DNA from: Candidatus Uhrbacteria bacterium
GTDB taxonomy: Bacteria; Patescibacteriota; Patescibacteriia; JACPHY01
NCBI GenBank assembly: GCA_016188355.1
Contig: JACPHY010000003.1
Location: 8,170-72,169, forward strand
DNA: 64,000 nt
Direction of reading: 5' to 3'
Shown: positions 13,456 to 49,629 of the stretch, piece by piece
Position numbering within the stretch: position 1 is the stretch's first letter
How the letters are laid out: every line of letters begins with the position of its first letter
Made by a program: the position numbers and the translations under genes
Notes under the pieces: model-generated
What the model saw: the letters and a program-made list of their open reading frames with translations, nothing else
Told to the model about the DNA's origin: nothing
Databases searched by the model: none

Positions 13456-14352
13456 ATGTCCCATTCCCCAGAACGCACGCAGGAATCCGCAGCGGAGGCA
13501 TCACCATCGCGCGCGAAAGAAACCATCTTTACTGCGGAGCGCGCGGAACACGATGTCTCCTGGGATGAATCGCCGGAAGCGGTGTTCCGCGATGCGCTCG
13601 CGCTCCTGGCGCCCGAACTCACCCCCGCGCAAACCGATGCGCTGACGCAGGAGCTCTCGCACGAATCTCCGACGCTCGATGCGATCCGCGCGATTGTCCA
13701 CGACGCTGCGCTCGCGCGTCGGATCGGAAAATGCAGCGATCAGTACCTGGGACGGCCGGTGCTGGTACATGGCATCTGGGAACAGCTGCGGTATGGGGCC
13801 ACCACATCCGGCATGACGGACACCGGACTCGGCCTCCGGCGCGCGCTCGCATGGCAGAGCGCGAACACCCACCGCACCGATCTCCGGGTGACGTATCCCG
13901 CATCCGGAGCGGATGCGACCGGATTCCTCGATCACCTCACGGGTGCACCGATTGCCCACCTCGACTGCGTCACCGCTGGCGGTCCTCAAGGCGCCGATCG
14001 CAAAGCAGCATCCCAAGACATTGATACGACGCTCGTCAAAAGCACGATCCAGCAAGCACTCGAGCAGCAACGCATCGCTCCCGCGGATTGCGTGGTCCTC
14101 GACAGCTCCGGATTCGGCGTGCTCATGGATCTCGCCGATCCCACGGTGCTCGCGGGGGCGCTCGATCGTCTCGTGGTGCCGGGTGGTATCCTCGTCACCA
14201 CTTCGGGGTATCTGGGTGCGGGAAGGGAATCCGTTAAACACGTACTCACGCAACTTCCGCCGGAACGCTACCGATACGTGGGACACCAGGGCGGTAACGT
14301 CTTCATCGTGGAACGCACGCGCACTACATCGGATGCGACCACATCCACCTGA
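13456..14352 (+). CDS. hypothetical protein (298 aa)
   Basis: RBS 'GGGGAGG' upstream, non-repetitive composition, fits between neighbours. Family not recognised. Confidence 0.5.
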   Translation: MSHSPERTQESAAEASPSRAKETIFTAERAEHDVSWDESPEAVFRDALALLAPELTPAQTDALTQELSHESPTLDAIRAIVHDAALARRIGKCSDQYLGRPVLVHGIWEQLRYGATTSGMTDTGLGLRRALAWQSANTHRTDLRVTYPASGADATGFLDHLTGAPIAHLDCVTAGGPQGADRKAASQDIDTTLVKSTIQQALEQQRIAPADCVVLDSSGFGVLMDLADPTVLAGALDRLVVPGGILVTTSGYLGAGRESVKHVLTQLPPERYRYVGHQGGNVFIVERTRTTSDATTST

Positions 14353-15948: not shown

Positions 15949-16875
15949 ATGTCGGATCCACGAAATGTCATCATCATCGGCGGCGGACCTGCCGGGCTTA
16001 CGGCAGCAATCTACGCGTCGCGGGCCCAACTGCAACCGCTCGTCATTGCGGGCACGATTCCCGGCGGCCAGCTCATGCTGACGTCGCATGTCGAAAACTT
16101 TCCCGGATTTGACGAACCCATCCTCGGTCCAGAACTCATGGAGCGCTGGCGGAAACAGGCGATGCGCTATGGCGCCGAATTCCTCGATGAGGATGCCACC
16201 GCGATCTCCGCAACGGAACGCCCATTCACGGTGACCGCTGCCGGTACCCCATACGCTGCGCGCGCTATTATTGTGGCGACGGGAGCATCTGCAAAGTGGC
16301 TCGGGCTTCCCAATGAACAAAAATTCATGGGGAAGGGCGTGCACACTTGCGCCCAATGCGATGGATTTGCGTACAAAAATAAGGAAGTGGTTGTCGTGGG
16401 CGGCGGTGACACCGCGATGGAAGAAACGTTGACGCTCGCAAAAATCGCATCGCACATCACCATCCTCCATCGCCGCGGCGAATTCCGAGCATCGAAAATC
16501 ATGGCCGATCGCGTACTCCAGCATCCGAACATTCGGGTGCTCTGGAACACGGTGGTCGAGGATGTACTCGGCGATACGCGCGTGACGGGCGTTCGTGCTC
16601 GGAACACGGAAACTCACGAGTCCATCGAACTCACGACGAGCGCGCTCTTCGTGGCCATCGGATACGCACCAAACACGGGCTTCCTCCGCGACCAGCTCGC
16701 CCTCCGTCCGAATGGCTACCTCGAAGTGCAGCAGCACACCCGCACCTCCGTGGAAGGCATCTTTGCTGCCGGTGATGTGGAGGACGCGCACTACCGTCAG
16801 GCCGTCACCGCCGCTGCGGGCGGCTGCATGGCAGCGATCGATGCGGAGCGGTGGTTGGCCACACAAGAAAACTGA
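15949..16875 (+). CDS. trxB: thioredoxin-disulfide reductase
   Basis: FAD-binding 'VIIIGGGPAGLTAAIYASRA', redox-active 'CAQCDG', NADPH-binding 'VVVVGGGDTAMEE'. 308 aa. Confidence 0.9.
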   Translation: MSDPRNVIIIGGGPAGLTAAIYASRAQLQPLVIAGTIPGGQLMLTSHVENFPGFDEPILGPELMERWRKQAMRYGAEFLDEDATAISATERPFTVTAAGTPYAARAIIVATGASAKWLGLPNEQKFMGKGVHTCAQCDGFAYKNKEVVVVGGGDTAMEETLTLAKIASHITILHRRGEFRASKIMADRVLQHPNIRVLWNTVVEDVLGDTRVTGVRARNTETHESIELTTSALFVAIGYAPNTGFLRDQLALRPNGYLEVQQHTRTSVEGIFAAGDVEDAHYRQAVTAAAGGCMAAIDAERWLATQEN

Positions 16876-16885
16876 TACGCAACAT

Positions 16886-17047
16886 ATGCGCCTTCTCTTC
16901 TCGCTCGTGCTGGTGAGCGGTCTTTGGTTGCTTATCTCGCCGTTTGTGTTGAGCTATCTCGGCGTGGGGCGCGCGAATGCGCTCCTCGTGGGGCTGATCG
17001 TGACTATCCTGGGAGTCATGGGGGTGGCTGGAACCACTGGGAAATAG
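16886..17047 (+). CDS. small hydrophobic membrane protein (53 aa)
   Basis: 'MRLLFSLVLVSGLWLLISPFVLSYLGVGRANALLVGLIVTILGVMGVAGTTGK', two predicted TM helices, immediately after trxB. No RBS check possible beyond the gap. Confidence 0.3.
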   Translation: MRLLFSLVLVSGLWLLISPFVLSYLGVGRANALLVGLIVTILGVMGVAGTTGK

Positions 17048-17149
17048 AGGATTGGGGCTCCTCCATCGGATGGACGTTCAGCCAGTTCTTGATCCGTGAC
17101 AATCACGCATCTCGGAAAATACTTGCCGACTGGCAGTAATTTTGGACAC

Positions 17150-17177
17150 AAAGATTAGCTCCACTGAGCTAATCTTT
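17150..17177. promoter_or_regulatory. perfect 12-bp palindrome AAAGATTAGCTC-cact-GAGCTAATCTTT in an AT-rich spacer (operator- or terminator-like)
   Basis: Seen directly in the sequence. Followed by 'gtttgc'. Lies at the left boundary of the small-ORF island. Confidence 0.5.
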
Positions 17178-17188
17178 GTTTGCATGTC

Positions 17189-17226
17189 TTGACAGAAATG
17201 ACAATCAATGCTAGTCTATAAATATA
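17189..17226 (+). promoter_or_regulatory. AT-rich promoter-like region (TTGACA ... TAGTCT/TATAAAT)
   Basis: 'cTTGACAgaaatgacaatcaatgcTAGTCTATAAATatac'. A -35 consensus with either a 17-nt spacer to weak TAGTCT or a 22-nt spacer to TATAAAT. Only strongly AT-rich block in the vicinity. Confidence 0.35.
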
Positions 17227-17392
17227 CCCTGTTTCAGGATTACTACTTCCCAATCGCAATCTCGTCAGACACAGCGCAACGGCCATCCTTCATTCGAGGT
17301 ATCGAAAATGGATGTCGACGCGCTGACACGAGAGAGGCTCGCGCGGGCCTGTAATGAATCCTGAACACCCGCCATTCCGTTCACCAACGGAC

Positions 17393-17433
17393 CCGAGCTC
17401 TCTCCTTTCTGGAGGGGGCTCGGTTTGTTTGTG
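17393..17433 (+). terminator. strong rho-independent terminator (13-bp stem CCGAGCTCTCTCC/GGAGGGGGCTCGG, loop tttct, tail TTTGTTTGTG)
   Basis: Hand-folded: all 13 positions pair (two G-U). The U-rich tail follows immediately. Confidence 0.6.
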
Positions 17434-17510
17434 CCTTCCACTCGAGCGACGGAGTCCCCAGTGGATTCCGGTGCTCAAGTGGGGGTCACACGCGCAGTCG
17501 AGTGAGCACC
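17434..17510 (+). repeat. family-A element, copy 0 (divergent)
   Basis: 'tCCACtCGAGCGAcGGAGtCCCcAGTGGaTTCCgGTGCTCAaGtGGG' aligns at about 80% to the consensus of copies 1-3. Followed 30-40 nt later by GGAGGG + ATG of the next ORF. Confidence 0.5.
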
Positions 17511-17540
17511 CTGTCACCGGAAGGCATGGAGGGAAACGAG

Positions 17541-17969
17541 ATGCCGCAGCGATCGAAGCAGTACAACGGAAACGGGCTCGCGGCGAGCCTGCAGCACGAT
17601 CTCATCACGAGAAAGAGCAGGATGGGGGAAATCCCGGACGAGGCATGGGCCGACAAGGGACCGGAGGGGCAGGGCGACTTCGATCCTGATCTCACCGTCA
17701 CGCCGGACCCGACGATCGAAGAGGACCTGCTCGACCAGGCGCCCGAGAACTGGTTCCAGCATCAGCGAAGGATGCGCCTGCTCGGCGAGGACAGCATCGA
17801 TCCGGACTCGATCCCGGACATGAGTCTCAACCCCGAGACGATCCTCATCGCGTGTGAGGAGGAGACCGAGGAGAGCACCGCGCTCGCCGCCGAGGCCACG
17901 ACGGCCTGGCGCGCCACGAAGGAGCGCAGCAGGCGCACGGTCCGCTTCCCCACCAGCGCCGTGGCCTGA
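17541..17969 (+). CDS. hypothetical acidic protein (142 aa), island ORF
   Basis: ORF 17502..17969 with start moved to the ATG at 17541 (GGAGGG 9 nt upstream). Asp/Glu-rich; no motif recognised. Confidence 0.45.
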   Translation: MPQRSKQYNGNGLAASLQHDLITRKSRMGEIPDEAWADKGPEGQGDFDPDLTVTPDPTIEEDLLDQAPENWFQHQRRMRLLGEDSIDPDSIPDMSLNPETILIACEEETEESTALAAEATTAWRATKERSRRTVRFPTSAVA

Positions 17970-18059
17970 GCCACTCGCACCCACCAGCAAGCAAGCACAT
18001 TCATCACAGACGCGTTTGCGACGTGACCTCTGACTCACTCTGCGAAGCACTTCGCAGAG

Positions 18060-18120
18060 GAGGAGTCGGAGGCCCACCCGAGCGATGGAGGCCCAAGTGG
18101 CTTCCAGTGCTCAGGCGGGT
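18060..18120 (+). repeat. family-A element, copy 1
   Basis: 'ggaggcCCACCCGAGCGATGGAGGCCCAAGTGGCTTCCAGTGCTCAGGCGGG'. Internal hairpin GGAGGCC-caagt-GGCUUCC (one G-U). Confidence 0.6.
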
Positions 18121-18152
18121 CACGCAACTTCACTCGAAAAGGAGACCGAGAA

Positions 18153-18455
18153 ATGGCAATGCATGTGATCACCGCACAGGAGAGCAGGATGGAGCCCATC
18201 GTGATCGACGGCGAGACTGTCGTCACCCTGCACCCGGCAAAGGACCGATTTGAGGCGGCGAAGATCGCGCATCAGCGCATTCGGCCGCACAACGGGCAGC
18301 ACTTCAGCTACACCGTGTTTCCGGGCGAGGGCCGCGACCCCGCCCGCAACCTCAGCCGGGAGTACGCGGGACGGGTGACGCACTGCATCATCTCGATGCC
18401 GGAGGCGATCCAGCTCTCCCCCGGCGACCAGGTCGCCCTGGTCCTGTACCCGTAA
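18153..18455 (+). CDS. hypothetical protein (100 aa), island ORF
   Basis: AAGGAG RBS 8 nt upstream of the ATG; 33 nt after family-A copy 1. No motif recognised. Confidence 0.5.
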   Translation: MAMHVITAQESRMEPIVIDGETVVTLHPAKDRFEAAKIAHQRIRPHNGQHFSYTVFPGEGRDPARNLSREYAGRVTHCIISMPEAIQLSPGDQVALVLYP

Positions 18456-18458
18456 CTG

Positions 18459-18528
18459 GTCCCCGACTCCGGTCGGGGCCCCACCCGAGCGATGGAGGCC
18501 CAAGTGGCCTCCAGTGCTCAGGCGGGGA
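18459..18528 (+). repeat. family-A element, copy 2
   Basis: 'ggtCCCCGACtccGGTCGGGGcCCCACCCGAGCGATGGAGGCCCAAGTGGCCTCCAGTGCTCAGGCGGGG'. A 5' hairpin CCCCGAC/GTCGGGG plus a perfect GGAGGCC-caagt-GGCCTCC hairpin. Confidence 0.6.
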
Positions 18529-18917
18529 TGGCCCAAGCACCCCGAACACGGCTACCGCCCACGCGAACCAGAGAGGAGGGTCCGTGCGACTGCGATACCC
18601 TTCTGGGTTTCTCTAACGAATCGGGGCTGAACCCATGCGGTTCAGTACCCAGTCACCCCACCCCCGCCAGAAGAGAGGAGGAGGGTCCGTGCGATCTCAG
18701 TACCCCAGCGGCGAAACGTAAGGCCGCTAAGGACAATCCTCGCTCAGGGAACAACGCTTGCCGCGATCACCAACGGCGAATCCCGACGCGGCCCGTTTCC
18801 TGAGCGCGATCTCCCGCCCCACGCCCCGCCCCATTTCCCCGACGTCATCCCACCGGCACCACGCCGCACACAGGATGATCCCGTCCCTTACGACACACAG
18901 ACGCGCTAGCGACAGCG

Positions 18918-18983
18918 CCCCCGACATCGGTCGGGGGTCCACCCGAGCGCCGGAGGCCCAAGTGGCATCCGGTGCTCAGGCGG
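18918..18983 (+). repeat. family-A element, copy 3
   Basis: 'CCCCCGACatcGGTCGGGGGTCCACCCGAGCGCCGGAGGCCCAAGTGGCATCCGGTGCTCAGGCGG'. The 5' hairpin is conserved through different bases than copy 2. Confidence 0.6.
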
Positions 18984-19024
18984 ATATTTCCTGGATGCAC
19001 CTTATTGAAGAAAGGAGGCCCGCA

Positions 19025-19474
19025 GTGCGCGCAAATGGATTTTGGCAACGTGGCGAATTCCGACTGGTTCGGCTTTCGCGATACGATAACTCCCGCGCCA
19101 TGCGGGAATGGTTCCCGCCCACGGCAGGACGCGGCATTTGGGCCTGGGCGGTGAAACTCTGTGATCTTCCGGAGTTCCACCACATCTATCGCGATCAATC
19201 GCGGCAGATTGTACACCCGAGGCGCGATGCCCGAGCGTGGGCGATCCGATGGACGGAGCTTGACGCCTACGTCTGTGGGCTCTCCGAGCACCATCCGGAG
19301 TGTGCGGAATTTGACCCCTCCCTTCACCACGTCCAAATCGTGGACCGCATGCAACCTTGTTGGTGCGGCTGCGATAGGACGGATGGTCCGTTCCGATACG
19401 TCACGAACTCCTGGGCAATCTACGTCGAAGGACCCATGCGCCGTCGACGCTGCCTCCCCACGCACCACCCCTAA
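19025..19474 (+). CDS. hypothetical Cys/Trp/His-rich protein (~149 aa), island ORF
   Basis: GTG start 9 nt after GAAAGGAGG, about 40 nt after family-A copy 3. '...HHPECAEFDPSLHHVQIVDRMQPCWCGCDRTDGPFRY...'. The upstream part of track ORF 18758..19474 runs through the repeat and was rejected. Confidence 0.45.
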   Translation: MRANGFWQRGEFRLVRLSRYDNSRAMREWFPPTAGRGIWAWAVKLCDLPEFHHIYRDQSRQIVHPRRDARAWAIRWTELDAYVCGLSEHHPECAEFDPSLHHVQIVDRMQPCWCGCDRTDGPFRYVTNSWAIYVEGPMRRRRCLPTHHP

Positions 19475-19519
19475 TTCACCCTGACTCCCACTTCGCGAAA
19501 TGCTTCGCGGGACAAGTGC

Positions 19520-19593
19520 GGTCGGGGGTCCACCCGAATTTCGGAGGCCGCGCTATGGTGTCGCAAGATGCCATACCTCCGGAATTCAGGCGG
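19520..19593 (+). repeat. family-A element, copy 4 (indel variant)
   Basis: 'GGTCGGGGGTCCACCCGAatttCGGAGGccgcgctatggtgtcgcaagatgccataCCTCCGgaattCAGGCGG'. The central hairpin is replaced by a longer nested hairpin (UAUGGU..GCCAUA). Confidence 0.5.
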
Positions 19594-19630
19594 ATCGTAT
19601 ACGGAACGCACTTTCAAGGAGGAGGACATC

Positions 19631-19783
19631 GTGACGAAAATTGACGTGCAACGAAGGCAGTTCGCAATCCCTTGGCCCAGAAGCACGCTCGGGATCATGG
19701 GCGTTCTGGGCGCACTCGCGCCGTATGTGGCCGCTGCATGCCTCGTCGCATACATCATGTACCGATCCTGCTTAGGTTCGTAG
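19631..19783 (+). CDS. small membrane peptide (50 aa), island ORF
   Basis: GTG 7 nt after AAGGAGGAGG. 'VTKIDVQRRQFAIPWPRSTLGIMGVLGALAPYVAAACLVAYIMYRSCLGS', one TM helix. Confidence 0.4.
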   Translation: MTKIDVQRRQFAIPWPRSTLGIMGVLGALAPYVAAACLVAYIMYRSCLGS

Positions 19784-19799
19784 CAAAAAGGAGCACCTG

Positions 19800-20249
19800 A
19801 TGCGCATCGCACACTTCCTGTTGAACCTCGACATCCCGGACCATCAGCCGACGGCAATCCCAGCATTCCGGATGGACGGCGCGAAGATGCACGCGAACTC
19901 GAGTCCGTACATCGTGTGGCTGCCGGGGAGCGTCGATCAGACGCTGCTCGCGAGCCTCACGATCATCGGAACGCGCCGAGCCGGCGAGCGTGTGCACGTC
20001 GTCCACGCGTCCGGATCTCCGGAGCTCATCGGATCGGGACCTGGGGGGAGCATGGCAACGCAGTTGACCTGCCAACCGGGGAGCGCGTTCTCGATCGTCC
20101 GTGACTACCTCGGCGAGCGACGATGCCAGACTCTGCGCTGGAACAACGACCGCTTCACCAAGGAGCAGGCGCCGCGCGAGCTCATCGACCGCGTGCTCGG
20201 CCCGCCGCCGATGCCCACCAACCCCGCGAGCGCGGAGGCGCGGTCGTGA
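19800..20249 (+). CDS. hypothetical protein (149 aa), island ORF
   Basis: AAAAAGGAG RBS upstream. Stop overlaps the GTG of the next small ORF (GTGA). Confidence 0.5.
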   Translation: MRIAHFLLNLDIPDHQPTAIPAFRMDGAKMHANSSPYIVWLPGSVDQTLLASLTIIGTRRAGERVHVVHASGSPELIGSGPGGSMATQLTCQPGSAFSIVRDYLGERRCQTLRWNNDRFTKEQAPRELIDRVLGPPPMPTNPASAEARS

Positions 20250-20374
20250 AACGCATCATCGGCATCGTCCTCCTGCTCGCGCTCGTCGCGTGTGAGGAGG
20301 GTGGCTGTTTCGATCCGGAGGCGATGAGCGGTAACGACCTCGGGCGCATGAAGCTCGCCGAACGCGCGCAGTAG
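20246..20374 (+). CDS. small putative lipoprotein (42 aa)
   Basis: 'VKRIIGIVLLLALVACEEGGCFDPEAMSGNDLGRMKLAERAQ'. Signal peptide with an L-V-A-C lipobox. Translationally coupled to the previous ORF. Confidence 0.35.
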   Translation: MKRIIGIVLLLALVACEEGGCFDPEAMSGNDLGRMKLAERAQ

Positions 20375-20570
20375 AGCACCCGAGACATCCAGCGGATCGA
20401 TGCGGAGCTCAATGATCTCCGCAGGCGCATAACCGAGTTCGAAGAGCGCTGCCCCGCGCGCTGATACGATACCTGAGCCTGTCGGTCCGCACCTCGTGCG
20501 GCCGACGGGTCTCCCTTCGTGGAGTCGATCGCAAGATCGAAGATACGAGAAGGAGCGGCGAGATACATGC

Positions 20571-20637
20571 CACTCCTCCGCCCACCCGGATTTCCGAGGA
20601 CGCGCCTTCATTCCTCACGGAGTGATTGCCTCGGAAT
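20571..20637 (+). repeat. family-B element, copy 1 (about 67-nt imperfect palindrome)
   Basis: 'CCACCCGGATTTCCGAGGacgcgccttcattcctcacggagtgattgCCTCGGAATTCCAGGCGGG'. The arms are imperfect reverse complements; the central 30 nt is conserved with copy 2. Confidence 0.55.
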
Positions 20638-20710
20638 TCCAGGCGGGCGTGAACGGATTGTGTGCGGTGGAGCACCGATCGCGAGTCACTCCCGGTTTGC
20701 GGAGGGGAAG

Positions 20711-20977
20711 ATGGTCAACGTCCATGTTCGTTCACTCGAAATCCTGCCGACGGAGGAAGAGCACGCCGCCATGCAGGCCTTTCGAGAAATCTGCGGGGGT
20801 CCGGACACGCCGGAAACCCTGCTGTTGCTCGCGGAAAGCGCGCAACTCTTGCAGAAACCGTTCTATCGGGTCACGCAGAACGCCGAGGGACTGCGCGCGG
20901 CTGCGGCGCGCAGCATACTCGAGCGCATGGCACACAACCGCGGCGTCGGCCTGGGTGCCCTGATCCAGTCGGCGTAG
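20711..20977 (+). CDS. hypothetical protein (88 aa), island ORF
   Basis: GGAGGGGAAG-ATG. 'MVNVHVRSLEILPTEEEHAAMQAFREICGGPDTPETLLLLAESAQ...'. Upstream in-frame extension rejected because it crosses the repeat. Confidence 0.45.
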   Translation: MVNVHVRSLEILPTEEEHAAMQAFREICGGPDTPETLLLLAESAQLLQKPFYRVTQNAEGLRAAAARSILERMAHNRGVGLGALIQSA

Positions 20978-21132
20978 CCGAATGCCCTGATCCCGACCCC
21001 GTAAGGTCGGGATCCCACCAGAGCAGCAGAGACATCCCATTTCTGCCGTTCCGGTGGAAGGACCACATCTGTGGTCGCATCCCATCGCGCATTCGTTTCA
21101 TCGATCACAACAACAGTAGGAGGAGGACGTCG

Positions 21133-21708
21133 ATGCACACTGCGCAGCGACAGTACACATCGGATCTCGATCCGGAGGTGCTCGACCAGATCGCCAGTGC
21201 ACTCGAGCCAGCAGGAGATCCAATTCCGAAACTCCAGGACGACGGCTACGGCGATCCGTACTGCGACAGCGAGCCCGAGAAGGAACTACGACGCCATCAA
21301 CAGGAGTGGGAAGACTTCTATGGTCGCTTCGGGTGGGACGGAAATCGCCCGCTCATCAATGTCGCGCACAATGTCGTGTACGATCACGGGCCGTGGGAGA
21401 TCGATTTGCGCATGCGCTTCGCGCTTGACGCATACCAGACCATCGGACGTCGACTCGCGGAATTCGAGACAGCACCACCACGCGCAAGCACAGCGCGATC
21501 AGTGATCGTGGAGACTGGCCGTACGCCACGCGGCCTCCACGAATGCCGCAAGGGCGCGCACAAACGATGGCGCCGCGCACGAAGCGAGGGTGGCCGCCGC
21601 CTGCCCCGTGCGCCGCTCCAGCTGCGACGCCGCGGTGGCACGCAGGATGACATCTTCGGTATGTGGTGGGATCAAGAGAGCGGTTGGCAGCCGATCTTTA
21701 AGAAGTAG
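21133..21708 (+). CDS. hypothetical protein (191 aa), island ORF
   Basis: AGGAGGAGG 7 nt before the ATG. The N-terminal 100 aa are acidic and non-repetitive; the C-terminal tail is Arg-rich, so the true stop may be earlier (possible frameshift). Confidence 0.4.
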   Translation: MHTAQRQYTSDLDPEVLDQIASALEPAGDPIPKLQDDGYGDPYCDSEPEKELRRHQQEWEDFYGRFGWDGNRPLINVAHNVVYDHGPWEIDLRMRFALDAYQTIGRRLAEFETAPPRASTARSVIVETGRTPRGLHECRKGAHKRWRRARSEGGRRLPRAPLQLRRRGGTQDDIFGMWWDQESGWQPIFKK

Positions 21709-21761
21709 CTCAGTGTAACGATATCTTCGGGGGAGCACGTGCACGATCTTCGCGCGTGCTC

Positions 21762-21808
21762 CGTCCACCCGGATTCCGAACTCTTCCCCCGTTCGGCATC
21801 CAGGTGGA
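21762..21808 (+). repeat. family-B-related palindrome (CCACCCGGATTCCGAAC-tcttccccc-GTTCGGCATCCAGGTGG)
   Basis: 17-bp imperfect inverted repeat sharing the 'GTCCACCCGGATT' start with family B. Its right arm supplies the GGAGGTGA RBS of ORF 21817. Confidence 0.45.
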
Positions 21809-21816
21809 GGTGATCC

Positions 21817-22236
21817 ATGAAGCTCCTTGCTCTGGTTCTCGGTACACTCGCCGCGTTTGCGGCGTGGTGGCTGCTCATGAGCCGCGATGACGTCATCGTG
21901 GCGTCGTACGCGGCACTCGTGTCCACGGCGAGTGCAACAATGGCATTCGCGCTCATCACGCGTTCGCACGTGCCGAAAATCCGCATTCCCATTGAAATCA
22001 CGGCCATCATGGGACTCGCGATCGGTCTCATCACCGAAGGTGCTGCGTTCGCCATCACGGGATACTCGGACTTCAGTGTACTCGCCATCATCGTCGGCGC
22101 GATCGCGTGCGGCGTGATCCTCGATCAACTCCTCACCATTGCCCATCGCGCCGGATACGAATCCGCAGAGCCGGGCCGCCACGAGTCCGAGCGGAAGACA
22201 ATCGAAGAGCAGCTGCCCGAATGGCCGCCGGAATAG
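21817..22236 (+). CDS. membrane protein (139 aa, 4 predicted TM helices), island ORF
   Basis: GGAGGTGATCC-ATG. Hydrophobic segments 'LLALVLGTLAAFAAWWLL', 'IMGLAIGLITEGAAFAI' and 'VLAIIVGAIACGVIL'. Confidence 0.5.
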   Translation: MKLLALVLGTLAAFAAWWLLMSRDDVIVASYAALVSTASATMAFALITRSHVPKIRIPIEITAIMGLAIGLITEGAAFAITGYSDFSVLAIIVGAIACGVILDQLLTIAHRAGYESAEPGRHESERKTIEEQLPEWPPE

Positions 22237-22359
22237 ACGGAAATCGTCGGTAGCGATCCCTGCATCTGGAATCCCCGGACCCGACGGCACCCGCTGTCGG
22301 ATCCTCCCTCGGGCGATGGAGTCTTCGGATTCCATCTTCCGAGAAGAGGAGTACCTTCC

Positions 22360-23277
22360 ATGCGCATCATGCTGATTGCGACGCTCAGCGGTTGCATTGC
22401 CTGTGCAACCACACGAGGGACTTCCGAACGCGAACTCCAGGCGGTTCGCAATGCGACAAACGGAGACACCTATCGCGGCACGATTCCCGCGCTGCACGCG
22501 CTCTTCGACGCACTCGAAAAGGACGATGCCCCACAGATCCTCCAGGCGCTCACCGCGATGCGTTTCGGGGCGGCCACAGCGGCGGCAGTGCAGTGTCCTC
22601 CCACGGAGCTGAAGGAGAGCATCCGTATCTCCGCGATACCGGGTCCCCGCGCGATGATCGTGCGCGCATCGGTTATCTGCGTCATCGGCCCATACACGAA
22701 CGCAACGCTCCATTACGGGGAAGAGAGCCGTGCCTTCGATTCGGTGCAATTCCCAGAAGATCCCGATGCGACGCTTTCGCCTTCCCAGCTCCGCACGCAG
22801 TACGAAGATCTCCTGATTGCGGATGCTGCCGCGTGGGGGAATTCCGGACTCCGTATCCCTACGGAGTTCGCTACCAACATCGTATTGCTCCTCGCGAACT
22901 ACCAGGAAGCACTTGAGGGGAAACGCACGATCATGGTCGAACCCAGCACATCTGGGTTCGACATCCGTACAGAACACCACTTCCGTTTCCGTCTCACCCG
23001 CGCGAAAGTCATCCCAACCCTGGAAGCGCTCGGGAAGCTGGCGGATGACTACCACGATGCGAATGGCGTCGCGACTCCATGGGAGGTCATGCGACTCACG
23101 GAGGATGCGCCATACCTCCTCGCGGTCGCATTCGATCTCTTCCCTGACTCCCGCGCGCTGCCGCAGCTCGCACAGGATGGAGTCGATTTCGGACGCGCCG
23201 CACTCGTACGGACTGGTCTTGGCAATCTCAAAAACAGCGTCACCAGTGACGCAATACAGATCCCCTCCTTCGAATAG
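22360..23277 (+). CDS. putative lipoprotein (305 aa), island ORF
   Basis: 'MRIMLIATLSGCIACA', a signal peptide with L-S-G-C lipobox. RBS GAGGAG upstream. No family recognised. Confidence 0.5.
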   Translation: MRIMLIATLSGCIACATTRGTSERELQAVRNATNGDTYRGTIPALHALFDALEKDDAPQILQALTAMRFGAATAAAVQCPPTELKESIRISAIPGPRAMIVRASVICVIGPYTNATLHYGEESRAFDSVQFPEDPDATLSPSQLRTQYEDLLIADAAAWGNSGLRIPTEFATNIVLLLANYQEALEGKRTIMVEPSTSGFDIRTEHHFRFRLTRAKVIPTLEALGKLADDYHDANGVATPWEVMRLTEDAPYLLAVAFDLFPDSRALPQLAQDGVDFGRAALVRTGLGNLKNSVTSDAIQIPSFE

Positions 23278-23337
23278 TTCTCACCACAGAGGACGCGTAT
23301 AGCCACCCCCTTCCGCGGGGCAGGAAGCGCGTCCTCC

Positions 23338-23405
23338 GTCCACCTGGATTTCCGGGACCGCGCCTTCACCTCGCAAGAGATGATTGCCCGGAAGTCCGGG
23401 TGGAC
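23338..23405 (+). repeat. family-B element, copy 2
   Basis: 'CCACCTGGATTTCCGGGaccgcgccttcacctcgcaagagatgattgCCCGGAAGTCCGGGTGG'. The arms match 15 of 17 as reverse complements; about 80% identical to copy 1. Confidence 0.55.
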
Positions 23406-23470
23406 GCGCTCCGTCCGTTGCAGCGCATCCCGCACATTTCCATCACAATACGCCACAAGGAGGGCGGATA

Positions 23471-23740
23471 ATGCCCATTTCCATCACGACGCGAGAAGCC
23501 ATCTGCATCATCGATAGCACGAAGCGAAGAGAGGATCCGTGCGCTCACGTGGAGCTCGCCCCTGGCCGCTACGAACTCGAGGAAATACAGAATCCATACG
23601 GCTTCGATGCTCCATGGTTCGTGCTCAAGGGCACGAAACGAGGGATGGCACGAAAAGCGTGGATGGACGAAGGAGCATTCGAGGGTCTCACCGAGGCGGA
23701 GATCGATGCCATCCGCAATCGACCCGAGCGCTCGGCCTGA
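23471..23740 (+). CDS. hypothetical protein (89 aa), island ORF
   Basis: CAAGGAGGGCGGATA-ATG, about 65 nt after family-B copy 2. 'MPISITTREAICIIDSTKRREDPCAHVELAPGRYELEEIQNPYGFDAPWFVLKG...'. Confidence 0.45.
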   Translation: MPISITTREAICIIDSTKRREDPCAHVELAPGRYELEEIQNPYGFDAPWFVLKGTKRGMARKAWMDEGAFEGLTEAEIDAIRNRPERSA

Positions 23741-23760
23741 AGAAAGAGGGAGAACACCCC

Positions 23761-24177
23761 ATGCAAATTTCCTGCTTCATGATCGACTTCAAGGATCCGA
23801 CCAAGATCATCCGACTTCCGTTCGGTAGTGTGGGGGAGCGATGGGCCACCTTCCATGATGATGGGCCTGGTGCCGCGCAACTCTCACACATCCCCGATCC
23901 CGCTCCTGCCCACGCGTTCATCGTGGCGCACTTCTCGCTCATCAACAGCGGGGAGACGGTGACCATCGATCTCATGGGTCCTGGTCACCATCTCTACGGA
24001 TCTGCGCTCGACCATGCGGCTGCGGCAAAGCCATTCACGCTCCTCCTCAACGCACGAACGCACGCCGAATTCACCTTCCGCGTGCAAAACAAGCACTGCA
24101 CCTGGATCCTCCGCTGGGACGGCTGCGAGCTGAGCAGCGTGCCGAAGCATGGCAACGATTTCCATATGCCCCACTGA
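23761..24177 (+). CDS. hypothetical protein (138 aa), island ORF
   Basis: AGGGAG RBS. 'MQISCFMIDFKDPTKIIRLPFGSVGERWATFHDDGPGAAQLSHIPDP...'. The upstream part of the track ORF overlaps the previous gene. Confidence 0.45.
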   Translation: MQISCFMIDFKDPTKIIRLPFGSVGERWATFHDDGPGAAQLSHIPDPAPAHAFIVAHFSLINSGETVTIDLMGPGHHLYGSALDHAAAAKPFTLLLNARTHAEFTFRVQNKHCTWILRWDGCELSSVPKHGNDFHMPH

Positions 24178-24201
24178 GCATCGGCTGGAGCGGAGAGACA
24201 C

Positions 24202-24483
24202 GTGAACGTCTTCGGATGGCTCATGTCCCTCTACCTGGCCGCAGCGTTGACACGGAGCACCTACCTCTCGATCGTTGCCGCACACCATGTGTACGACGCA
24301 CGCGCGGAAGCAGCAACGGTCCCGATGGCGGTGCGCGAAATCGCGAATGCGGCCGTCCGCAGCGCCGAGAAACAAGCATATGTCGCGGGATGCGACTTGC
24401 TCATGTGGTGCTTCTGCGGCGCATTCCTTATTCTGGTCATCCTACCGACGATCCCCGAACACCGAAAGGAGTCCCATCCATGA
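24202..24483 (+). CDS. small membrane protein (93 aa), island ORF
   Basis: GTG start after GGAGCGGAGAGA. Two hydrophobic segments. Stop overlaps the next start (ATGA). Confidence 0.4.
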   Translation: MNVFGWLMSLYLAAALTRSTYLSIVAAHHVYDARAEAATVPMAVREIANAAVRSAEKQAYVAGCDLLMWCFCGAFLILVILPTIPEHRKESHP

Positions 24484-24836
24484 GACCGTTCATCTTCGCC
24501 TGGACCTTCGGCCGCGAGCAGGCGAGGGATCCGGATGCGGCGACGCTCGCGCTCGCATGGGCAGCCATGGAATGCGGAGCGACCCGAGAGGCGGCCGCAC
24601 TCGAATTCATCCACCTCGGATGGAGCATCGCGGCCGCGACGCGCATCGCGAAGGCGGCAGAGGCAGAGCTCCGGCGAGAGCGCATCTCGTACGTCGTCGG
24701 ACTTATCCGCGAGGCACTCGCGGATAAGTCCGACGACCACGCCATCCGCGCGCTCCTCACCACCGAGCGGTGGATGCGGCCGCAGGAGCTCGATGCACTC
24801 ATCGCCGACCTCCGTGCGGCAGCACTCGTTGCATGA
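24480..24836 (+). CDS. hypothetical protein (118 aa), island ORF
   Basis: AAAGGAG RBS, ATGA coupling to the previous ORF. Followed by a terminator. Confidence 0.45.
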   Translation: MRPFIFAWTFGREQARDPDAATLALAWAAMECGATREAAALEFIHLGWSIAAATRIAKAAEAELRRERISYVVGLIREALADKSDDHAIRALLTTERWMRPQELDALIADLRAAALVA

Positions 24837-24852
24837 TCATAGATATTCCCGG

Positions 24853-24890
24853 CCCGGAGCTGCCCTCGCAGCTTCGGGTCTTTCGTTTTC
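24853..24890 (+). terminator. rho-independent terminator (CCCGGAGCTGC-cctc-GCAGCTTCGGG + TCTTTCGTTTTC)
   Basis: 11-bp stem (one G-U) plus U-rich tail, directly after the stop at 24836. Near-duplicate of the terminator at 26297. Confidence 0.6.
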
Positions 24891-25327
24891 ATGTGCGCAG
24901 GCGGAATCTGCTCACCCGAACGAACGGAAGAACGCACACCACACGCGGTTACACGGATATTTCGGATGCATTCCTGCCCGATGCTCCACAGGCACTTCAT
25001 CTCTTTAGAACTCTCACCCGAAACATTTCATCGTGTAACGTAGTATCTACTATTGTGACGGTATATATGGAAGGTCCAATAGGCACGGGTGGACGATGGC
25101 GGCTGCGCTGAACGGATAGTGGGAACGTCGTTTGCCGGAGCCAGAACGAAGTAATGCCTCCCTCAAAGAAGCCATCGTCCACCCATGTCTGCACCCCATC
25201 GCGCTGAGCGCGACGGGGTGCAATGTTGCGCCAAAACAACACGGAGGATGTTTGCGATCGCATTGACACGCTCGCATGCTGGTGATAGGACAAAGGTGTA
25301 GCTCGTTCCTTTTCCTGGAGGTGCATC

Positions 25328-26275
25328 GTGGAAGTCGAAGTACGCATGGATCCGCAGCGGCCGCCAATGTCGCTCGAGGAATTCCGCCGAATCGCACCGC
25401 CGCACGCGGTCGGCATCGATGGGTGCGTAGACGCTGGCCCGTGGCGGGATTTCGGATCTACCGGACCGCGCTACGTGTGGAATCATCATTCGCACGTCGA
25501 TCGCCTCGCCACGCGCGCCACCTGCATGCAGGCGCTCCTCGAACTGCGCTGTGGCGATCTCGACGAGATCCTGCGCGGATCCACCGGCCGACCATTCGCG
25601 ATCGTCTTCGCCGATGACTGCGACGCCGATGCGTCGAGTACCATCGTCATCCTGCGGCGATCGGAACTGTTCGCCCATCCCGTGAACCCGCTCGCCAATC
25701 GCTTCGTCGGAGCGGAAGATCTCATGGATACCTTCGCAGGCGCATACCCGTACCCGTGCGACCTCGAACTACTCGAGGAACTCGCATGGATTTTTCAGCC
25801 CTACGACGATTTCCGGCAGGAGGGCGGACTCGAACGGAAGATCGCGGCGGAGTACCTCCGCGTCGTTGATCTGATCGAGGCGAACATCGTACAGTACCTC
25901 GTCGGACGCGGGAAACGTCGAAAACTCGACCTCCGGTACGACGTACTTCAGACCGGCAACGGATGGACGATGGTGCGCGAACACGGCGCGCAGGCGCGGA
26001 CGAAAATGCGCGACGACGGTATCCGGGTGTTCGTTTCGGTGCATGAACGCACCTCCGGCACACGCGACGTTCGCATTGGGAAAATGCACCTCCATGCGCG
26101 CGGCGATCTCATCGCGATTTGCAACGATCTCAATGCACGCGAAGGGGTCGCGGCCGATCGCTGGGGCGGCGGAACGAACATCATCGGCAGCCCGAAGGTC
26201 GCCGGCACTAAACTCGACGATCGCACGATCATGGAGGTGCTCAACCACCATCTCGGCTTGCCGCTCGCCGCATGA
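25328..26275 (+). CDS. hypothetical protein (315 aa), last large ORF of the island
   Basis: GTG start 6 nt after GGAGGTG. Non-repetitive sequence. Followed by a terminator. No family recognised. Confidence 0.5.
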   Translation: MEVEVRMDPQRPPMSLEEFRRIAPPHAVGIDGCVDAGPWRDFGSTGPRYVWNHHSHVDRLATRATCMQALLELRCGDLDEILRGSTGRPFAIVFADDCDADASSTIVILRRSELFAHPVNPLANRFVGAEDLMDTFAGAYPYPCDLELLEELAWIFQPYDDFRQEGGLERKIAAEYLRVVDLIEANIVQYLVGRGKRRKLDLRYDVLQTGNGWTMVREHGAQARTKMRDDGIRVFVSVHERTSGTRDVRIGKMHLHARGDLIAICNDLNAREGVAADRWGGGTNIIGSPKVAGTKLDDRTIMEVLNHHLGLPLAA

Positions 26276-26296
26276 GGTAAACGGCATACGCACTCC

Positions 26297-26333
26297 GGCC
26301 CGAAGCTGCCCCCGCAGCTTCGGGCCTTTCTGT
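26297..26333 (+). terminator. rho-independent terminator (GGCCCGAAGCTGC-cccc-GCAGCTTCGGGCC + TTTCTGT)
   Basis: 13-bp perfect stem, 22 nt after the stop at 26275. The stem core is identical to the terminator at 24853. Confidence 0.6.
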
Positions 26334-26435
26334 GGCAACCTCGCCCCACGTCCAATCCACCACCGCGCCCCCACTTGCATCCATGGGGGCAGATACGCGC
26401 ATACTGGAAACAGGATTCTTAATTGATGGTGTGGT

Positions 26436-26597
26436 ATGGAGTACGCATGCGCCACCTGTGGGTCGACCGCGTCGGAAGCGCCGGAAACCTGCTGTGAAAC
26501 GGAACGCGAAGAAGCGTGCGACCGGTGTAAGGAAGCGATGTCGAACTGCACGTGCGAAAGTGCCGAGCTAGAGGGCACGGAAGCGGAGGAGGAATAG
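26436..26597 (+). CDS. candidate Cys-rich acidic small protein (53 aa), not in the ORF track (<60 aa)
   Basis: Hand translation: 'MEYACATCGSTASEAPETCCETEREEACDRCKEAMSNCTCESAELEGTEAEEE', 9 Cys including CxxC, CC, CxxC and CxC. Weak RBS (GGTGTGG). Followed by a hairpin terminator at about 26619-26655 (AACGGAAGCT-tcccaagg-AGCTTCCGTT + TGTTATACTT). Confidence 0.25.
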   Translation: MEYACATCGSTASEAPETCCETEREEACDRCKEAMSNCTCESAELEGTEAEEE

Positions 26598-26677
26598 TAA
26601 TCATACCGACGAGCAGCAAACGGAAGCTTCCCAAGGAGCTTCCGTTTGTTATACTTCAGCATTATCCGAATTCGATT

Positions 26678-27127
26678 ATGATTGTCGTTCTTGGCGCAGA
26701 TCACCGAGGGTTTGCCATGAAGGAGATCCTGACGGAATGGTTGCGGGTAAAGGGGTACACCGTGGAAGATGCCGGCGCCGCCACCCTCGATGCGGACGAT
26801 GATTATCCGGACTTCGGCGCAGCGGTAGGACGTGCAGTCGCATCGCGTGCCGATACGTTCGGTATTATCCTCTGTGGCAGCGGAGCTGGCATCGCGGTTG
26901 CGGCGAATAAGATTGCCGGTGCACGCGCGGTTGCTGCCACTGAACCCGCTATTGTCCGCGCCGCGCGCCGGGACGATGATGTGAACATCCTCGCCATTGC
27001 GGCGGACTACACCACCGAGGACATGACGAAGATCCTCACCGCCATTTTTCTCGAAACGCCATTCAGCGCCGAGGAACGTTTCCAACGGCGGCTGCAAAAA
27101 ATTCAGCAGCTGGAACATGCGCACTAG
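26678..27127 (+). CDS. rpiB: ribose-5-phosphate isomerase B
   Basis: 'MIVVLGADHRGF...LCGSGAGIAVAANKIAGARAV' matches the RpiB/LacAB family. Start set at ATG 26678; the upstream in-frame part of the track ORF lies inside the terminator and spacer. Confidence 0.9.
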   Translation: MIVVLGADHRGFAMKEILTEWLRVKGYTVEDAGAATLDADDDYPDFGAAVGRAVASRADTFGIILCGSGAGIAVAANKIAGARAVAATEPAIVRAARRDDDVNILAIAADYTTEDMTKILTAIFLETPFSAEERFQRRLQKIQQLEHAH

Positions 27128-47162: not shown

Positions 47163-47694
47163 ATCTTATGAGACCTCTGCAAGAATCGCTTTCGTGCCAG
47201 GGACGTGATGTTCGAGCGAGCTGCGCGACGCAGACCCGAGCGATATCCAGCGGATCTCGTGAACGGTCGAGGAACGCAGCGCAGCCGAACAGCGCGTTCC
47301 TGGCGCGAATCTGGATTTTTGCAGAGGTCTCTTATTGCAATATCCGATGAACACCATTGGTGCGCACCCGCTAGTCCGAAGTCACCGTACCGTAATGACA
47401 AAACGATGTCAATGGAGCACACGGGGATCGATTCCCCCGTCTCATTTCCTGATTCCAAAACCTGCGGCGCCGCGCACGCGTCATGGAGCATTCGTGGGGT
47501 CGTCCACCGCTTCTCCACCTCCCATCCACGGAAACGCCTCCGAGCGCGCTTGTCCTGCGTCCGAACATGCGCGAAAATAAAACGCGTAGCCGGTGGTATC
47601 TCGTTCGCGGCGGAGGAGCGCGCACGGGGATCTTGTTGGTGCGTGATGGTCCTCGTATACTCCACCCGCGGGTTAACGCGTGTCGGTGGTACGT

Positions 47695-49104: not shown

Positions 49105-49153
49105 GAGTGAACGGAGAACCTCCCGCCACAATCACGTGGCGGGAGGTTGGTAT

Positions 49154-49609
49154 TCAGGCAGCAGCCGGAAGTGTTGGGAGCTCATGCCAGCGGGGCGCGC
49201 CGACGCTCACATTGTCCGCGAAGTGGGAGGGGTTGAGGGCATGGTCGTGCCCCGACGGAATGTAGAGGGGGACGAAATCGCCGATGCACTCCGTTCGGAA
49301 ACCAGCCGGGTTCAGGGTCGTGCCGGGGTGCAGGTACGTCCCGTCATTGCGCATCCCGCTGATCGAAACGCCGGCACGCGCGGATGCACAGCAGGCGCAC
49401 AGGAACTCCCCGCGCTGATCATGATCCTTGTAGCGCCACAACTTGCATCCCTGCGCCGCGCACTGCGTGCACCGCAACTTCCCCGCGGCCATCAAGCGCG
49501 TCCACCAATCCACCCATGCCATTTGCTCACTTCCTTTCTCATGCACGCACCGCAGCACGGCGGTGACCTGCTGATTGTTTTTATCAAACCAAGACTCCCC
49601 AAGCGCCAA
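49154..49609 (-). CDS. hypothetical Cys-rich protein (151 aa) inserted between dnaA and oriC
   Basis: 'LRCTQCAAQGCKLWRYKDHDQRGEFLCACCASA' (CxxC...C...CxCC) and 'SGHDHALNPSHFADN'. A possible metal-binding or nuclease-like fold, not assignable. Confidence 0.4.
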   Translation of the reverse strand: MALGESWFDKNNQQVTAVLRCVHEKGSEQMAWVDWWTRLMAAGKLRCTQCAAQGCKLWRYKDHDQRGEFLCACCASARAGVSISGMRNDGTYLHPGTTLNPAGFRTECIGDFVPLYIPSGHDHALNPSHFADNVSVGAPRWHELPTLPAAA

Positions 49610-49629
49610 GCGTTCAAGCTACAAGTACC

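Follow-up and report, generated by a model that had tools for sequence, protein, structure and literature searches.

A conserved hairpin module separates the cassettes of a hypervariable small-gene array 3′ of trxB in Candidatus Uhrbacteria

Between trxB (15949–16875) and rpiB (about 26676–27127) of a Candidatus Uhrbacteria bacterium lies a run of small open reading frames (ORFs) interleaved with structured repeats, which an earlier note on this DNA had likened to an integron cassette array without an integrase. The question that this locus raises is what kind of system strings such genes together and exchanges them. We approached it with a 64,000-nucleotide (nt) stretch of contig JACPHY010000003.1 (assembly GCA_016188355.1, positions 8,170 to 72,169), referred to here as the window, and with the corresponding loci of related genomes, which carry L numbers below. 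The feature is real and more extensive than first described, as the locus is conserved across a clade of Uhrbacteria. The explanation that we favor, tentatively and at a little short of even confidence, is that the array is one attenuator-controlled transcription unit in which the repeated modules serve both as RNA punctuation and as crossover points for cassette turnover.

The window has a G+C content of ∼62%, and its remainder consists of ordinary cellular genes, among them those for pyrophosphatase, PolA, PBP1A, PurB, DnaA, DnaN, and transketolase; rpiB and rpe together occupy ∼26.7–27.8 kb. As claimed earlier, every plausible ORF in the trxB–rpiB interval is on the + strand and most have AGGAGG-type ribosome-binding sites (RBSs); none of the 16 small ORFs has a Pfam match. 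The array proper, which extends over 7.7 kb of one strand (17.19–24.89 kb) and holds 14 small ORFs, is bounded on the right by a conserved gene of 315 amino acids (aa) and on the left by trxB and a small gene for an SPW-repeat membrane protein (the SPW gene; Table 1). The SPW gene is also found 3′ of trxB in L001, L123, L125, L133, L137, and L146, and the two genes are a conserved left flank outside the variable array. The island had originally been drawn from 17050 to 26340. The variable array within these limits is real, but the right limit was placed too far, since the variable part stops at the terminator at 24851.

Related loci were obtained by scanning metagenomes with a 45-nt form of the repeat motif and by retrieving contigs through TrxB homologues. 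They comprise six related Uhrbacteria genomes plus fragments, with TrxB sequences 84%, 70%, 70%, 66%, 63%, and 58% identical to that of the window. The layout of the locus recurs in these relatives: trxB, usually followed by the SPW gene, then the promoter, a leader with a terminator, and a + strand array of small ORFs split by the same module. The exception is L145, from the genome with 63% identity, where the contig stops after a single module match 1 kb downstream of trxB. Most related contigs end inside the array or at its head, and the whole array is spanned only by the contig of the window. Among the 48 array ORFs of six genomes there are eight homologous pairs, to which a seventh genome adds one weak link. 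The site, promoter, leader, and hairpins are the same, yet the ORFs are almost wholly different, and the few common cassettes have different neighbors; the behavior expected of a cassette array is therefore borne out. The phase-variable system that had been offered as an option is not, as we see no invertible segment and all modules are co-oriented.

Comparison with the closest relative (L133, with L139 carrying the array end of the same genome) resolves this turnover further. The flanks are collinear with the window up to the first hairpin and again from 25081, and in the interior whole ORFs are present, absent, or replaced, with the shared segments delimited by modules. Hairpin M3 is identical over 51 nt to L133 12481–12531; identity in the 1 kb around it is 80%, and the two genomes have a synonymous divergence (dS) of 0.4–1.2. 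M4 is 93% identical over 97 nt to L133 14812–14906 between unrelated flanking ORFs, and M6 is homologous to L133 16316–16368. The four genes of the tail cassette (ORF13–ORF16) have no homology to L139. Among the other relatives, one cassette common to L123, L125, and L137 has different neighbors and a different following hairpin variant in each. One hairpin interior occurs with three upstream and three downstream partners.

These patterns bear on a second explanation, namely that the array is the product of a new integron-like capture system, in which the hairpins would be sites folded in single-stranded DNA and a recombinase encoded elsewhere, not of the IntI/attC type, would excise cassettes and insert them downstream of the resident promoter. 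Such a system would be expected to occupy a fixed site, with one strong promoter ahead of co-oriented and mostly orphan cassettes that have no predicted promoter of their own, and to differ almost wholly in content between relatives with syntenic flanks, as this array does. ORF2 lies between two near-identical hairpins, as expected after insertion of a circle, and most related contigs break within the array or at its head, as could result if populations were heterogeneous. We searched other samples for a presence/absence polymorphism of ORF2 and found only the same arrangement. A capture reaction would, however, be expected to leave one crossover position, and we find none: a hairpin interior has varied partners, and the homology breakpoints are scattered over the small hairpin, the foot of the long hairpin, or the sequence after the downstream box. 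With no single crossover point, homologous or illegitimate recombination is more likely than a precise reaction at a specific site. On balance we regard capture by a dedicated recombinase as less likely than not, but as a serious rival.

What, then, is the repeat at which these exchanges are bounded? The earlier note had described two families, A (five copies) and B (three copies). The repeats are real and nonrandom, but they are one family, as both forms have the same basal stem and only the arm interior and the loop differ. The common foot is 5′-CCACCCG...CAGGCGG-3′, and all ten copies in the window read as one foot type; the count rises from eight through the addition of 21013–21060 and the diverged copy at 22302–22349. 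All copies fold far better than shuffled sequences, with z scores of −2.6 to −5.4, and the pattern CCACCYGR-N20–50-YCMGGYGG has seven matches, all within 18.0–23.4 kb, against 0.08 expected. The interiors of M5 and M9 are about 77% identical to each other.

The anatomy of the module was drawn from ∼50 copies in eight genomes. In most of these a short GC-rich hairpin (typically CCCCGAC-N3–5-GTCGGGG) is followed after one or two bases by the long hairpin, of 20–30 bp with the conserved base CCCACCCGAG / CTCAGGCGGG, and then by GGGAA or GGGGAT. A box occurs 6–15 nt farther on, followed by the RBS and the start codon. The box is GCACCTTCAACC in the L123/L125/L137 lineage and degenerate in the window; it is present seven times in the L137 array and absent from the other 7 kb of that contig. 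In sequence it (e.g., L137 8639, 9039, 10823) resembles the 3′ tail of 16S rRNA (CACCTCC), and it could pair with the downstream Shine–Dalgarno sequence. At M4 only the 3′ arm of the small hairpin is left upstream, and the loop of the small hairpin of M2 is of the UNCG type. The first junction module of L137 (7865–8037) is 173 nt long and has a second family B core (GCGCCTTCGTTCGCAAGAATGATTGCC) nested in its loop; it may have arisen by insertion or duplication inside a hairpin.

The module is specific to these arrays. A covariance model (R1) built from 24 hairpins of several genomes finds eight + strand copies in the window, at 14.7–48.9 bits and all between 17.4 and 21.8 kb; of two further copies, M9 (23337) is a weak R1 match and M8 (22302) was recognized by eye and by its fold. 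The remaining 56 kb gave nothing convincing with R1, and within the 64-kb window the hairpins are confined to the array. Dozens of R1 matches occur in the arrays of the related genomes, and none in the 10-kb upstream flanks of the relatives. At ≥20 bits there is one match in 1.30 Mb of unrelated genomes plus L139–L141; this control set consists of species-representative genomes found via TrxB, from many phyla and with best relatives 60% identical, and is uninformative for synteny. A loose motif scan of viral contigs returned 37 single matches, none of them a good hairpin, which we take as chance. The metagenome scan with the 45-nt motif gave 13 loci, of which three (L123, L124, and L125) are genuine. 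One of the others, L130, was rejected as an array because it is a terminator where unrelated genes converge; the rest we attribute to chance.

This distribution is difficult to reconcile with an explanation of the hairpins as selfish repeats, akin to repetitive extragenic palindromic (REP) elements or miniature inverted-repeat transposable elements, which a Y1/HUH transposase would have mobilized into the spacers of a fast-evolving operon and which would have no role for the host. Such elements would account for near-identical copies at different positions and for the nested copy of L137, and a palindrome with a conserved foot and a nearby short box recalls the hairpin and cleavage-site layout of IS200/IS605 and REP elements. 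No copy lies outside the array in the window, however, the one match in 1.3 Mb of other genomes is weak, every copy shares the orientation of the ORFs, and no transposase is seen among the window ORFs scanned. Moreover, the 45-nt variant is almost unchanged across the clade, including the genome in which TrxB is 58% identical, a degree of conservation that selfish drift would hardly produce. We consider this explanation quite improbable.

The pattern of substitution indicates structural selection on the stem. Both partners have changed in 14 of 21 pairs of the 45-nt type, in which the paired fraction of cells is 90.5%, compared with 35–50% when the partners are slid; in the basal stem of all types, 10 of 12 pairs are changed on both sides. 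Selection acts on the primary sequence too, as the intact M3 and the near-constant 45-nt type show. Pair 13–37 is G·U in all 13 sequences, and many G·U cells but next to no A·C cells occur at the variable pairs, with few nonstandard cells outside three positions. G·U outnumbers A·C in the stem interiors by 68 to 35, though the local composition favors A and C. Eight of the 12 four-nucleotide loops read in small hairpins are UNCG or GNRA (UUCG five times, GACA twice, and UCCG once), and the long hairpin variants are capped by GCAA, with no special loop among these on the opposite strand. Nearly all window matches score higher with R1 on the + strand than on the − strand (M6, with 14.7 bits for + and 20.4 bits for −, is not among them), and all modules are co-oriented with the array ORFs. 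The compensatory changes, the G·U bias, and the UUCG/GNRA tetraloops point to a function in the sense mRNA, in a suggestive rather than a decisive manner. The tetraloops and the sense-strand G·U bias would not be expected of the capture system introduced above, although the conserved base, conserved mismatches, and variable distal part of the hairpin do recall attC, with its R box and its terminal structure that varies.

The position of the module relative to the ORFs also ties it to the next gene. In 25 of 43 modules the next start codon lies 29–77 nt beyond the hairpin, whereas the spacing between the previous stop codon and the hairpin is far more scattered; in the window the distance to the start codon ranges from 5 to 72 nt, a wider spread than the 30–70 nt given before. 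In four modules the 3′ arm of the hairpin overlaps the start region of the next ORF or lies within a few nucleotides of it, and in at least three of these it supplies the Shine–Dalgarno sequence. At M7 the 3′ arm GGTGGAGGTG doubles as the Shine–Dalgarno sequence of ORF11, whose start lies 5 nt downstream, and at M8, which has a UUCG loop, the 3′ arm overlaps the RBS of ORF12. A module that reaches into the 5′ untranslated region (UTR) and RBS again speaks against a pure recombination site of the capture type. The junction hairpins do not have the form of intrinsic terminators, being followed by GGGAA or GGGGAT with no T-runs.

Transfer RNA (tRNA) sequences also occur in some arrays. In L123 a complete tRNA-Ala(TGC) (2405–2479) begins one base past a junction hairpin, which implies that the RNA of that cassette would be cut at the hairpin foot. 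tRNA-like fragments are present in array spacers of L137 (∼13.6 kb), L138 (∼13.6 kb; ...GGTTCGATTCCCGCCGGTGCCACCA), and L146 (∼13.0 kb). A transfer-messenger RNA or tRNA had been suspected in L138 and L146 and was not confirmed: ARAGORN and Rfam found none in L137 or L138 (the scan covered these two and not L146), and we treat these sequences as fragments.

The head of the array, as described earlier, contains a palindrome, a promoter, and a small transcript running from promoter to terminator, and all are found, as are the duplicated terminators toward the right (24851–24880 and 26297–26326). The palindrome is maintained in five genomes (the window, L133, L123, L125, and L137) despite changes in both arms, and we read it as the likely terminator of the SPW gene. 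The promoter block CTTGACAGnAnTGACA is invariant in five genomes, similar promoters are present in L138 and L146, and a consensus scan found no further sigma-70-like site within the array. The leader RNA folds with a minimum free energy (MFE) of −84.4 kcal/mol (z −4.97). Its terminator is conserved in the L123/L125/L137 group and is seen by alignment in L133 too, and the first junction hairpin begins three bases past its T-run. Since an earlier stretch of the leader, GAGAGAGGCTCG, is complementary to the 5′ arm of this terminator, CGAGCTCTCTC, the leader looks like an attenuator, with a possible antiterminator pairing deduced from the sequence. A terminator of the same form as the closing one ends the array in L139, and the only long-stem terminators called by our scan are those of the leader, the array end, and the 315-aa gene. 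Rfam 15 matched neither leader nor modules at the gathering score or at E values up to 1–5 in the window and five related loci, where its output was limited to tRNAs and spurious microRNA matches.

The leader brings up another explanation, in which the hairpins are cis-regulatory operators, or antitermination or attenuation signals, under one regulator, and the variability of the ORFs is ordinary accessory turnover. The alternative pairings of the leader are typical of attenuators, the Shine–Dalgarno sequence is sequestered by the hairpin in several modules, and foot and loop of the hairpin are conserved in sequence, all of which such regulation would predict. Between copies, however, the half-sites are 31–150 nt apart, a spacing that makes an operator in duplex DNA unlikely, and regulation by itself leaves the segments gained and lost between module boundaries unexplained. 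We therefore view it as improbable.

Is the array an integron after all? In a complete integron, intI and attI adjoin the first cassette, and attC sites carry an inverse core RYYYAAC (R″) and a core GTTRRRY (R′) at their feet, together with R and L boxes, an unpaired central spacer, and extrahelical bases. The earlier note had already remarked that GTTRRRY was not evident and that the window held no recombinase, and both remarks stand. The expression RYYYAAC...GTTRRRY has no match on either strand of 17001–25000 (shuffled mean 0.66), and there is no AAC/GTT pair at the hairpin feet. Recombinase domains are absent from the ∼46 window ORFs tested, including the 16 of the small-ORF region, and from the genes called around the array heads and the ORF17 locus in the relatives, an absence that counts equally against the capture system. 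No intI is seen by the array; in the window and in L133, L137, and L146 its head lies directly against trxB, the SPW gene, and the promoter, and in L134 and L138 other non-recombinase genes intervene. The hairpin is one long imperfect stem with two conserved 1 × 1 mismatches near the foot and a variable distal part, which is attC-like only in outline.

The array does share with sedentary integrons and with clusters of attC sites lacking integron-integrases (CALINs) a promoter at the head, co-oriented and mostly single-ORF cassettes without predicted promoters and without assigned function, an imperfect palindrome with a conserved foot and variable distal part that is highly similar within an array, and content that varies between relatives at a fixed locus. 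One array also contains a toxin–antitoxin pair. It differs from them in having no adjacent IntI or attI, no RYYYAAC/GTTRRRY cores, and no visible two-box and central-spacer layout, in the extra small hairpin before and the 5′-UTR box after the long stem, and in the RNA-type loops, sense G·U bias, and lack of an apparent single crossover point. A literature search on integrons or cassette arrays in Uhrbacteria, Patescibacteria, or the candidate phyla radiation (CPR) returned nothing relevant. A canonical sedentary integron or CALIN with diverged attC sites, for which the general resemblance had been the argument, is thus very unlikely indeed. The missing cores and recombinase, the housekeeping genes at the head, and the RNA-type hairpins lead us to set that filing aside, and the fallback of a different cassette-like system fits the data. 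By the tests run, the array lies outside the integron family and, as far as we searched, was previously undescribed.

Other known systems offer partial parallels. REP elements and bacterial interspersed mosaic elements (e.g., at malE–malF) are likewise intercistronic imperfect palindromes that can stabilize upstream mRNA and promote rearrangements. They are, however, spread genome-wide in both orientations and linked to REP-associated tyrosine transposases (RAYTs), whereas the Uhrbacteria copies occupy one array in one orientation and are tied to the downstream RBS; dispersed copies in two orientations were not found in the 64-kb window or the relatives' 10-kb upstream flanks, nor was a Y1/HUH (RAYT) gene among the window ORFs scanned. 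The RNase III sites of the phage T7 early operon are related hairpins of ∼20 bp or longer with internal mismatches, located between small genes of a long transcript, and they give the upstream message a hairpin at its 3′ end and the downstream message a defined 5′ UTR. The T7 gene set is fixed, whereas that of the Uhrbacteria array is variable, and cleavage by RNase III is here a conjecture. Clustered regularly interspaced short palindromic repeats (CRISPR) resemble the array in having a promoter-bearing leader and then co-oriented, hairpin-capable repeats with unique sequence between them; they differ from it in that the Uhrbacteria repeats are spaced 0.4–1.6 kb apart, vary in length from 41 to 173 nt, and are separated by protein-coding "spacers". 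No cas genes are seen in the window.

The explanation that we favor, RNA punctuation combined with crossover, would work as follows. The consensus promoter and the terminator-containing leader would drive a hypervariable string of small genes 3′ of trxB and the SPW gene, with each cassette, of one to four ORFs, preceded by the same junction module; many of the predicted products are membrane or lipoprotein-like, and most of the genes lack relatives. The long hairpin may be where a conserved RNA-binding protein or a double-stranded RNA nuclease, for example RNase III, recognizes or processes the transcript. The small hairpin would shield the upstream cistron at its 3′ end, and the box and RBS would provide a standard 5′ UTR for the downstream one. 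Because the modules are near-identical DNA repeats of 60–100 nt, they may also act as recombination sites at which cassettes are added, deleted, or swapped, most simply by homologous recombination after DNA uptake, and such exchange would lead to the divergence in gene content between related genomes.

Several considerations weigh against this explanation. The summed MFE is about equal on the + and − strands, so that thermodynamics picks neither, and the two mismatches conserved near the foot (A·C and C·A when read on the + strand) would become G·U wobbles on the − strand. The strong conservation at the base and loop of the hairpin is just as compatible with a DNA-binding recombinase that acts on a single strand in folded form, as with attC. 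The G·U and tetraloop counts are not independent events, because the copies of the module are related to each other. Transcription through the leader terminator, a shared transcript, and its processing are predictions from the DNA. Homologous recombination between repeats of ∼50–100 nt is inefficient, and its operation here is our inference. Finally, the comparison covers 64 kb of this genome and 5–20 kb of each relative, and modules may exist elsewhere in these genomes.

The cassettes themselves are largely without recognizable relatives. Of the 48 array ORFs, two have Pfam matches (STIV_B116-like and PQ-loop), two match PHROGs, and one matches PADLOC; transmembrane (TM)-like segments are found in 19, and several have lipoprotein-like N-termini. 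The ratio of nonsynonymous to synonymous substitution (dN/dS) is 0.21–0.23 in three cassette pairs and 0.58–0.87 in three others, with 0.08–0.11 for TrxB and the 315-aa gene, which indicates that some of the cassettes, at least, are genuine genes subject to selection. The lower values include ORF4 (77% identical to its L133 counterpart by BLASTP; dN/dS 0.21), a member of a small family with 29 representatives for which no database record was found under the start codon given here, and ORF7 (42 aa, lipoprotein-like; 86% identical to an L133 ORF; dN/dS 0.23), which has a GTGA start/stop overlap with ORF6. ORF1, called as a 142-aa gene on independent contigs, is 42% identical to an L133 ORF by BLASTP (dN/dS 0.58). 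ORF12 is a strict orphan; among 5.8 billion proteins, only itself was found. A blastn search of 17130–24900 against phage and plasmid collections gave no match, and neither these collections nor PHROGs or PADLOC place the array in a prophage, plasmid, or defense island.

One cassette has no long ORF and instead contains two mini-ORFs with GGAGG ribosome-binding sites, MRLRYPSGFL (18584–18616) and MRSQYPSGET (18689–18721). Counterparts of 10–11 aa are present in L133 at 12.1–12.3 kb and 13.3–13.4 kb (MRRKYPSGFL, MRSRYPSGET, and MRLRYPTGFIE), and conservation of the peptides exceeds that of the adjoining DNA. A role as leader peptides or as small functional peptides is conceivable.

Toxin genes are associated with some of the related loci. 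A HicA/HicB-like toxin–antitoxin pair lies within the L146 array on the opposite strand (13465–13915); toxin–antitoxin pairs also occur within sedentary chromosomal integrons, and the HicAB-like pair would fit the capture system in this respect. L125 and L134 have two further genes in this region: a PIN toxin gene separates the SPW gene from the array promoter, and a 23S_rRNA_IVP gene, with long AT-rich inverted repeats on either side, separates trxB from the SPW gene. The coordinates of this pair of genes in L125 are 1126–1488 and 2096–2503, in positional order.

Table 1. Coordinates of the array, its modules and cassettes, and its immediate flanks in the window
Feature	Position	Strand	Details
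SPW gene (small SPW-repeat membrane protein)	16887–17047	+	Pfam SPW match, E 1e-5
Palindrome	17143–17184	.	Inverted repeat just 5′ of the −35 element
Array promoter	17189–17217	+	−35 TTGACA 17189–17194; 17-nt spacer; TG-extended −10 TGcTAGTCT 17209–17217
Structured leader RNA	17222–17433	+	Terminator stem 17393–17423, then TTTGTTTGTG
Hairpin M0, first module	17436–17486	+	CCACTCG...CAAGTGG; directly after leader terminator; R1 46.2 bits, E 6e-12; fold z −5.4
ORF1, 142 aa	17541–17969	+	RBS GGAGGG; no Pfam match
Hairpin M1, 45-nt type	18072–18122	+	CAAGT loop; R1 45.0 bits; fold z −4.1
ORF2, 100 aa	18153–18455	+	Flanked by near-identical M1 and M2; missing from closest relative L133
Module M2	18461–18529	+	Small hairpin CCCCGAC-TCCG-GTCGGGG 18461–18478; junction hairpin 18479–18529; R1 48.9 bits; fold z −4.5
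Cassette without long ORF	18584–18721	+	Two 10-aa mini-ORFs with strong RBSs; direct repeat
Module M3	18919–18987	+	Small hairpin 18919–18936; junction hairpin 18937–18987; R1 48.5 bits
ORF4, 149 aa	19025–19474	+	7 Cys; no Pfam match
Hairpin M4, long type	19528–19596	+	Distal stem capped by GCAA tetraloop; R1 20.9 bits
Three-gene cassette	19631–20374	+	ORF5 19631–19783 (50 aa, TM segment); ORF6 19800–20249 (149 aa); ORF7 20246–20374
Hairpin M5 (former family B)	20580–20650	+	Base CCACCCGG...CCAGGCGG; R1 16.9 bits, E 0.009
ORF9, 88 aa	20711–20977	+	41% identical to L133 ORF (BLASTP); dN/dS 0.68
Module M6	20989–21060	+	Absent from the earlier note; small hairpin 20989–21014; junction hairpin CCCACCAGAG...CCGGTGG
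ORF10, 191 aa	21133–21708	+	RBS AGGAGGAGG; no Pfam match
Hairpin M7	21763–21811	+	R1 33.5 bits; fold
ORF11, 139 aa	21817–22236	+	Four TM-like segments
Diverged hairpin M8	22302–22349	+	CCTCCCTCGGGCGATGGAGTC-TTCG-GATTCCATCTTCCGAGAAGAGG; repeat copy; fold z −2.6; missed by R1, membership by eye
ORF12, 305 aa	22360–23277	+	Lipoprotein-like N-terminus; no Pfam match
Hairpin M9 (former family B)	23337–23405	+	Near-perfect; outer GCGCG extension; GCAA tetraloop on distal stem; fold z −4.6; R1 weak, 12.3 bits
Four-gene tail cassette	23471–24836	+	No internal modules; ORF13 23471–23740; ORF14 23761–24177; ORF15 24202–24483; ORF16 24480–24836
Closing intrinsic terminator	24851–24890	+	Stem 24851–24880 of 13 bp, then TTTCGTTTTC
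315-aa ORF	25328–26275	+	Conserved core gene, outside array
Terminator after 315-aa gene	26297–26326		Terminator scan

A few further features lie within or beside the array. A perfect palindrome at 24693–24737 (21 + 21 nt with a 3-nt center) is part of the coding sequence of ORF16; only spurious microRNA models of Rfam match there. The 315-aa gene has 44 homologues of about 300–320 aa, no Pfam domain, and the motifs NHHSHVD and DDCDADAS. It stands beside rpiB in the closest relative and in unrelated contexts, away from arrays, in more distant genomes, on which ground we rejected it as an array-linked enzyme or recombinase. Its 5′ UTR includes an inverted repeat (25081–25190; 20-nt arms, 90% complementary, 70 nt apart) at which homology to L139 restarts exactly after the variable array; it has no Rfam match and is a candidate cis-regulatory RNA. 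Just upstream of rpiB and outside the array, a 53-aa ORF (26436–26597) without a Pfam match encodes eight cysteines in CxxC-type spacing and an acidic tail. The window also contains dnaA and dnaN at 47680–52224 (47.7–52.2 kb) and a cumulative GC-skew minimum at ∼51 kb, which together place the array about 26–33 kb from the replication origin. In L138 (5755–9614), trxB and the array directly adjoin dnaN-dnaA-rpmH-rnpA-yidD.

CPR bacteria have very small genomes and probably live attached to hosts, and the locus bears on how such bacteria generate and exchange accessory genes. The motif CCCACCCGAG...CTCAGGCGGG provides a specific handle with which to find arrays of this kind in metagenomes. If the junctions are RNA punctuation, the locus would be a compact plug-and-play expression scaffold, and if they are recombination sites, it would be an independently arisen analogue of the integron. 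Capture driven by a recombinase would be the more remarkable outcome: Uhrbacteria, and perhaps other CPR bacteria, would then have an unrecognized integron-analogous platform, with a promoter–attenuator head by trxB, a new type of hairpin site, and a recombinase acting in trans, for swapping small orphan genes, many of them for membrane or secreted proteins, a prospect that we hold to be doubtful but worth keeping in view. Either way, the locus concentrates lineage-specific small membrane and secreted proteins and is a good place to seek functions in host interaction or defense.

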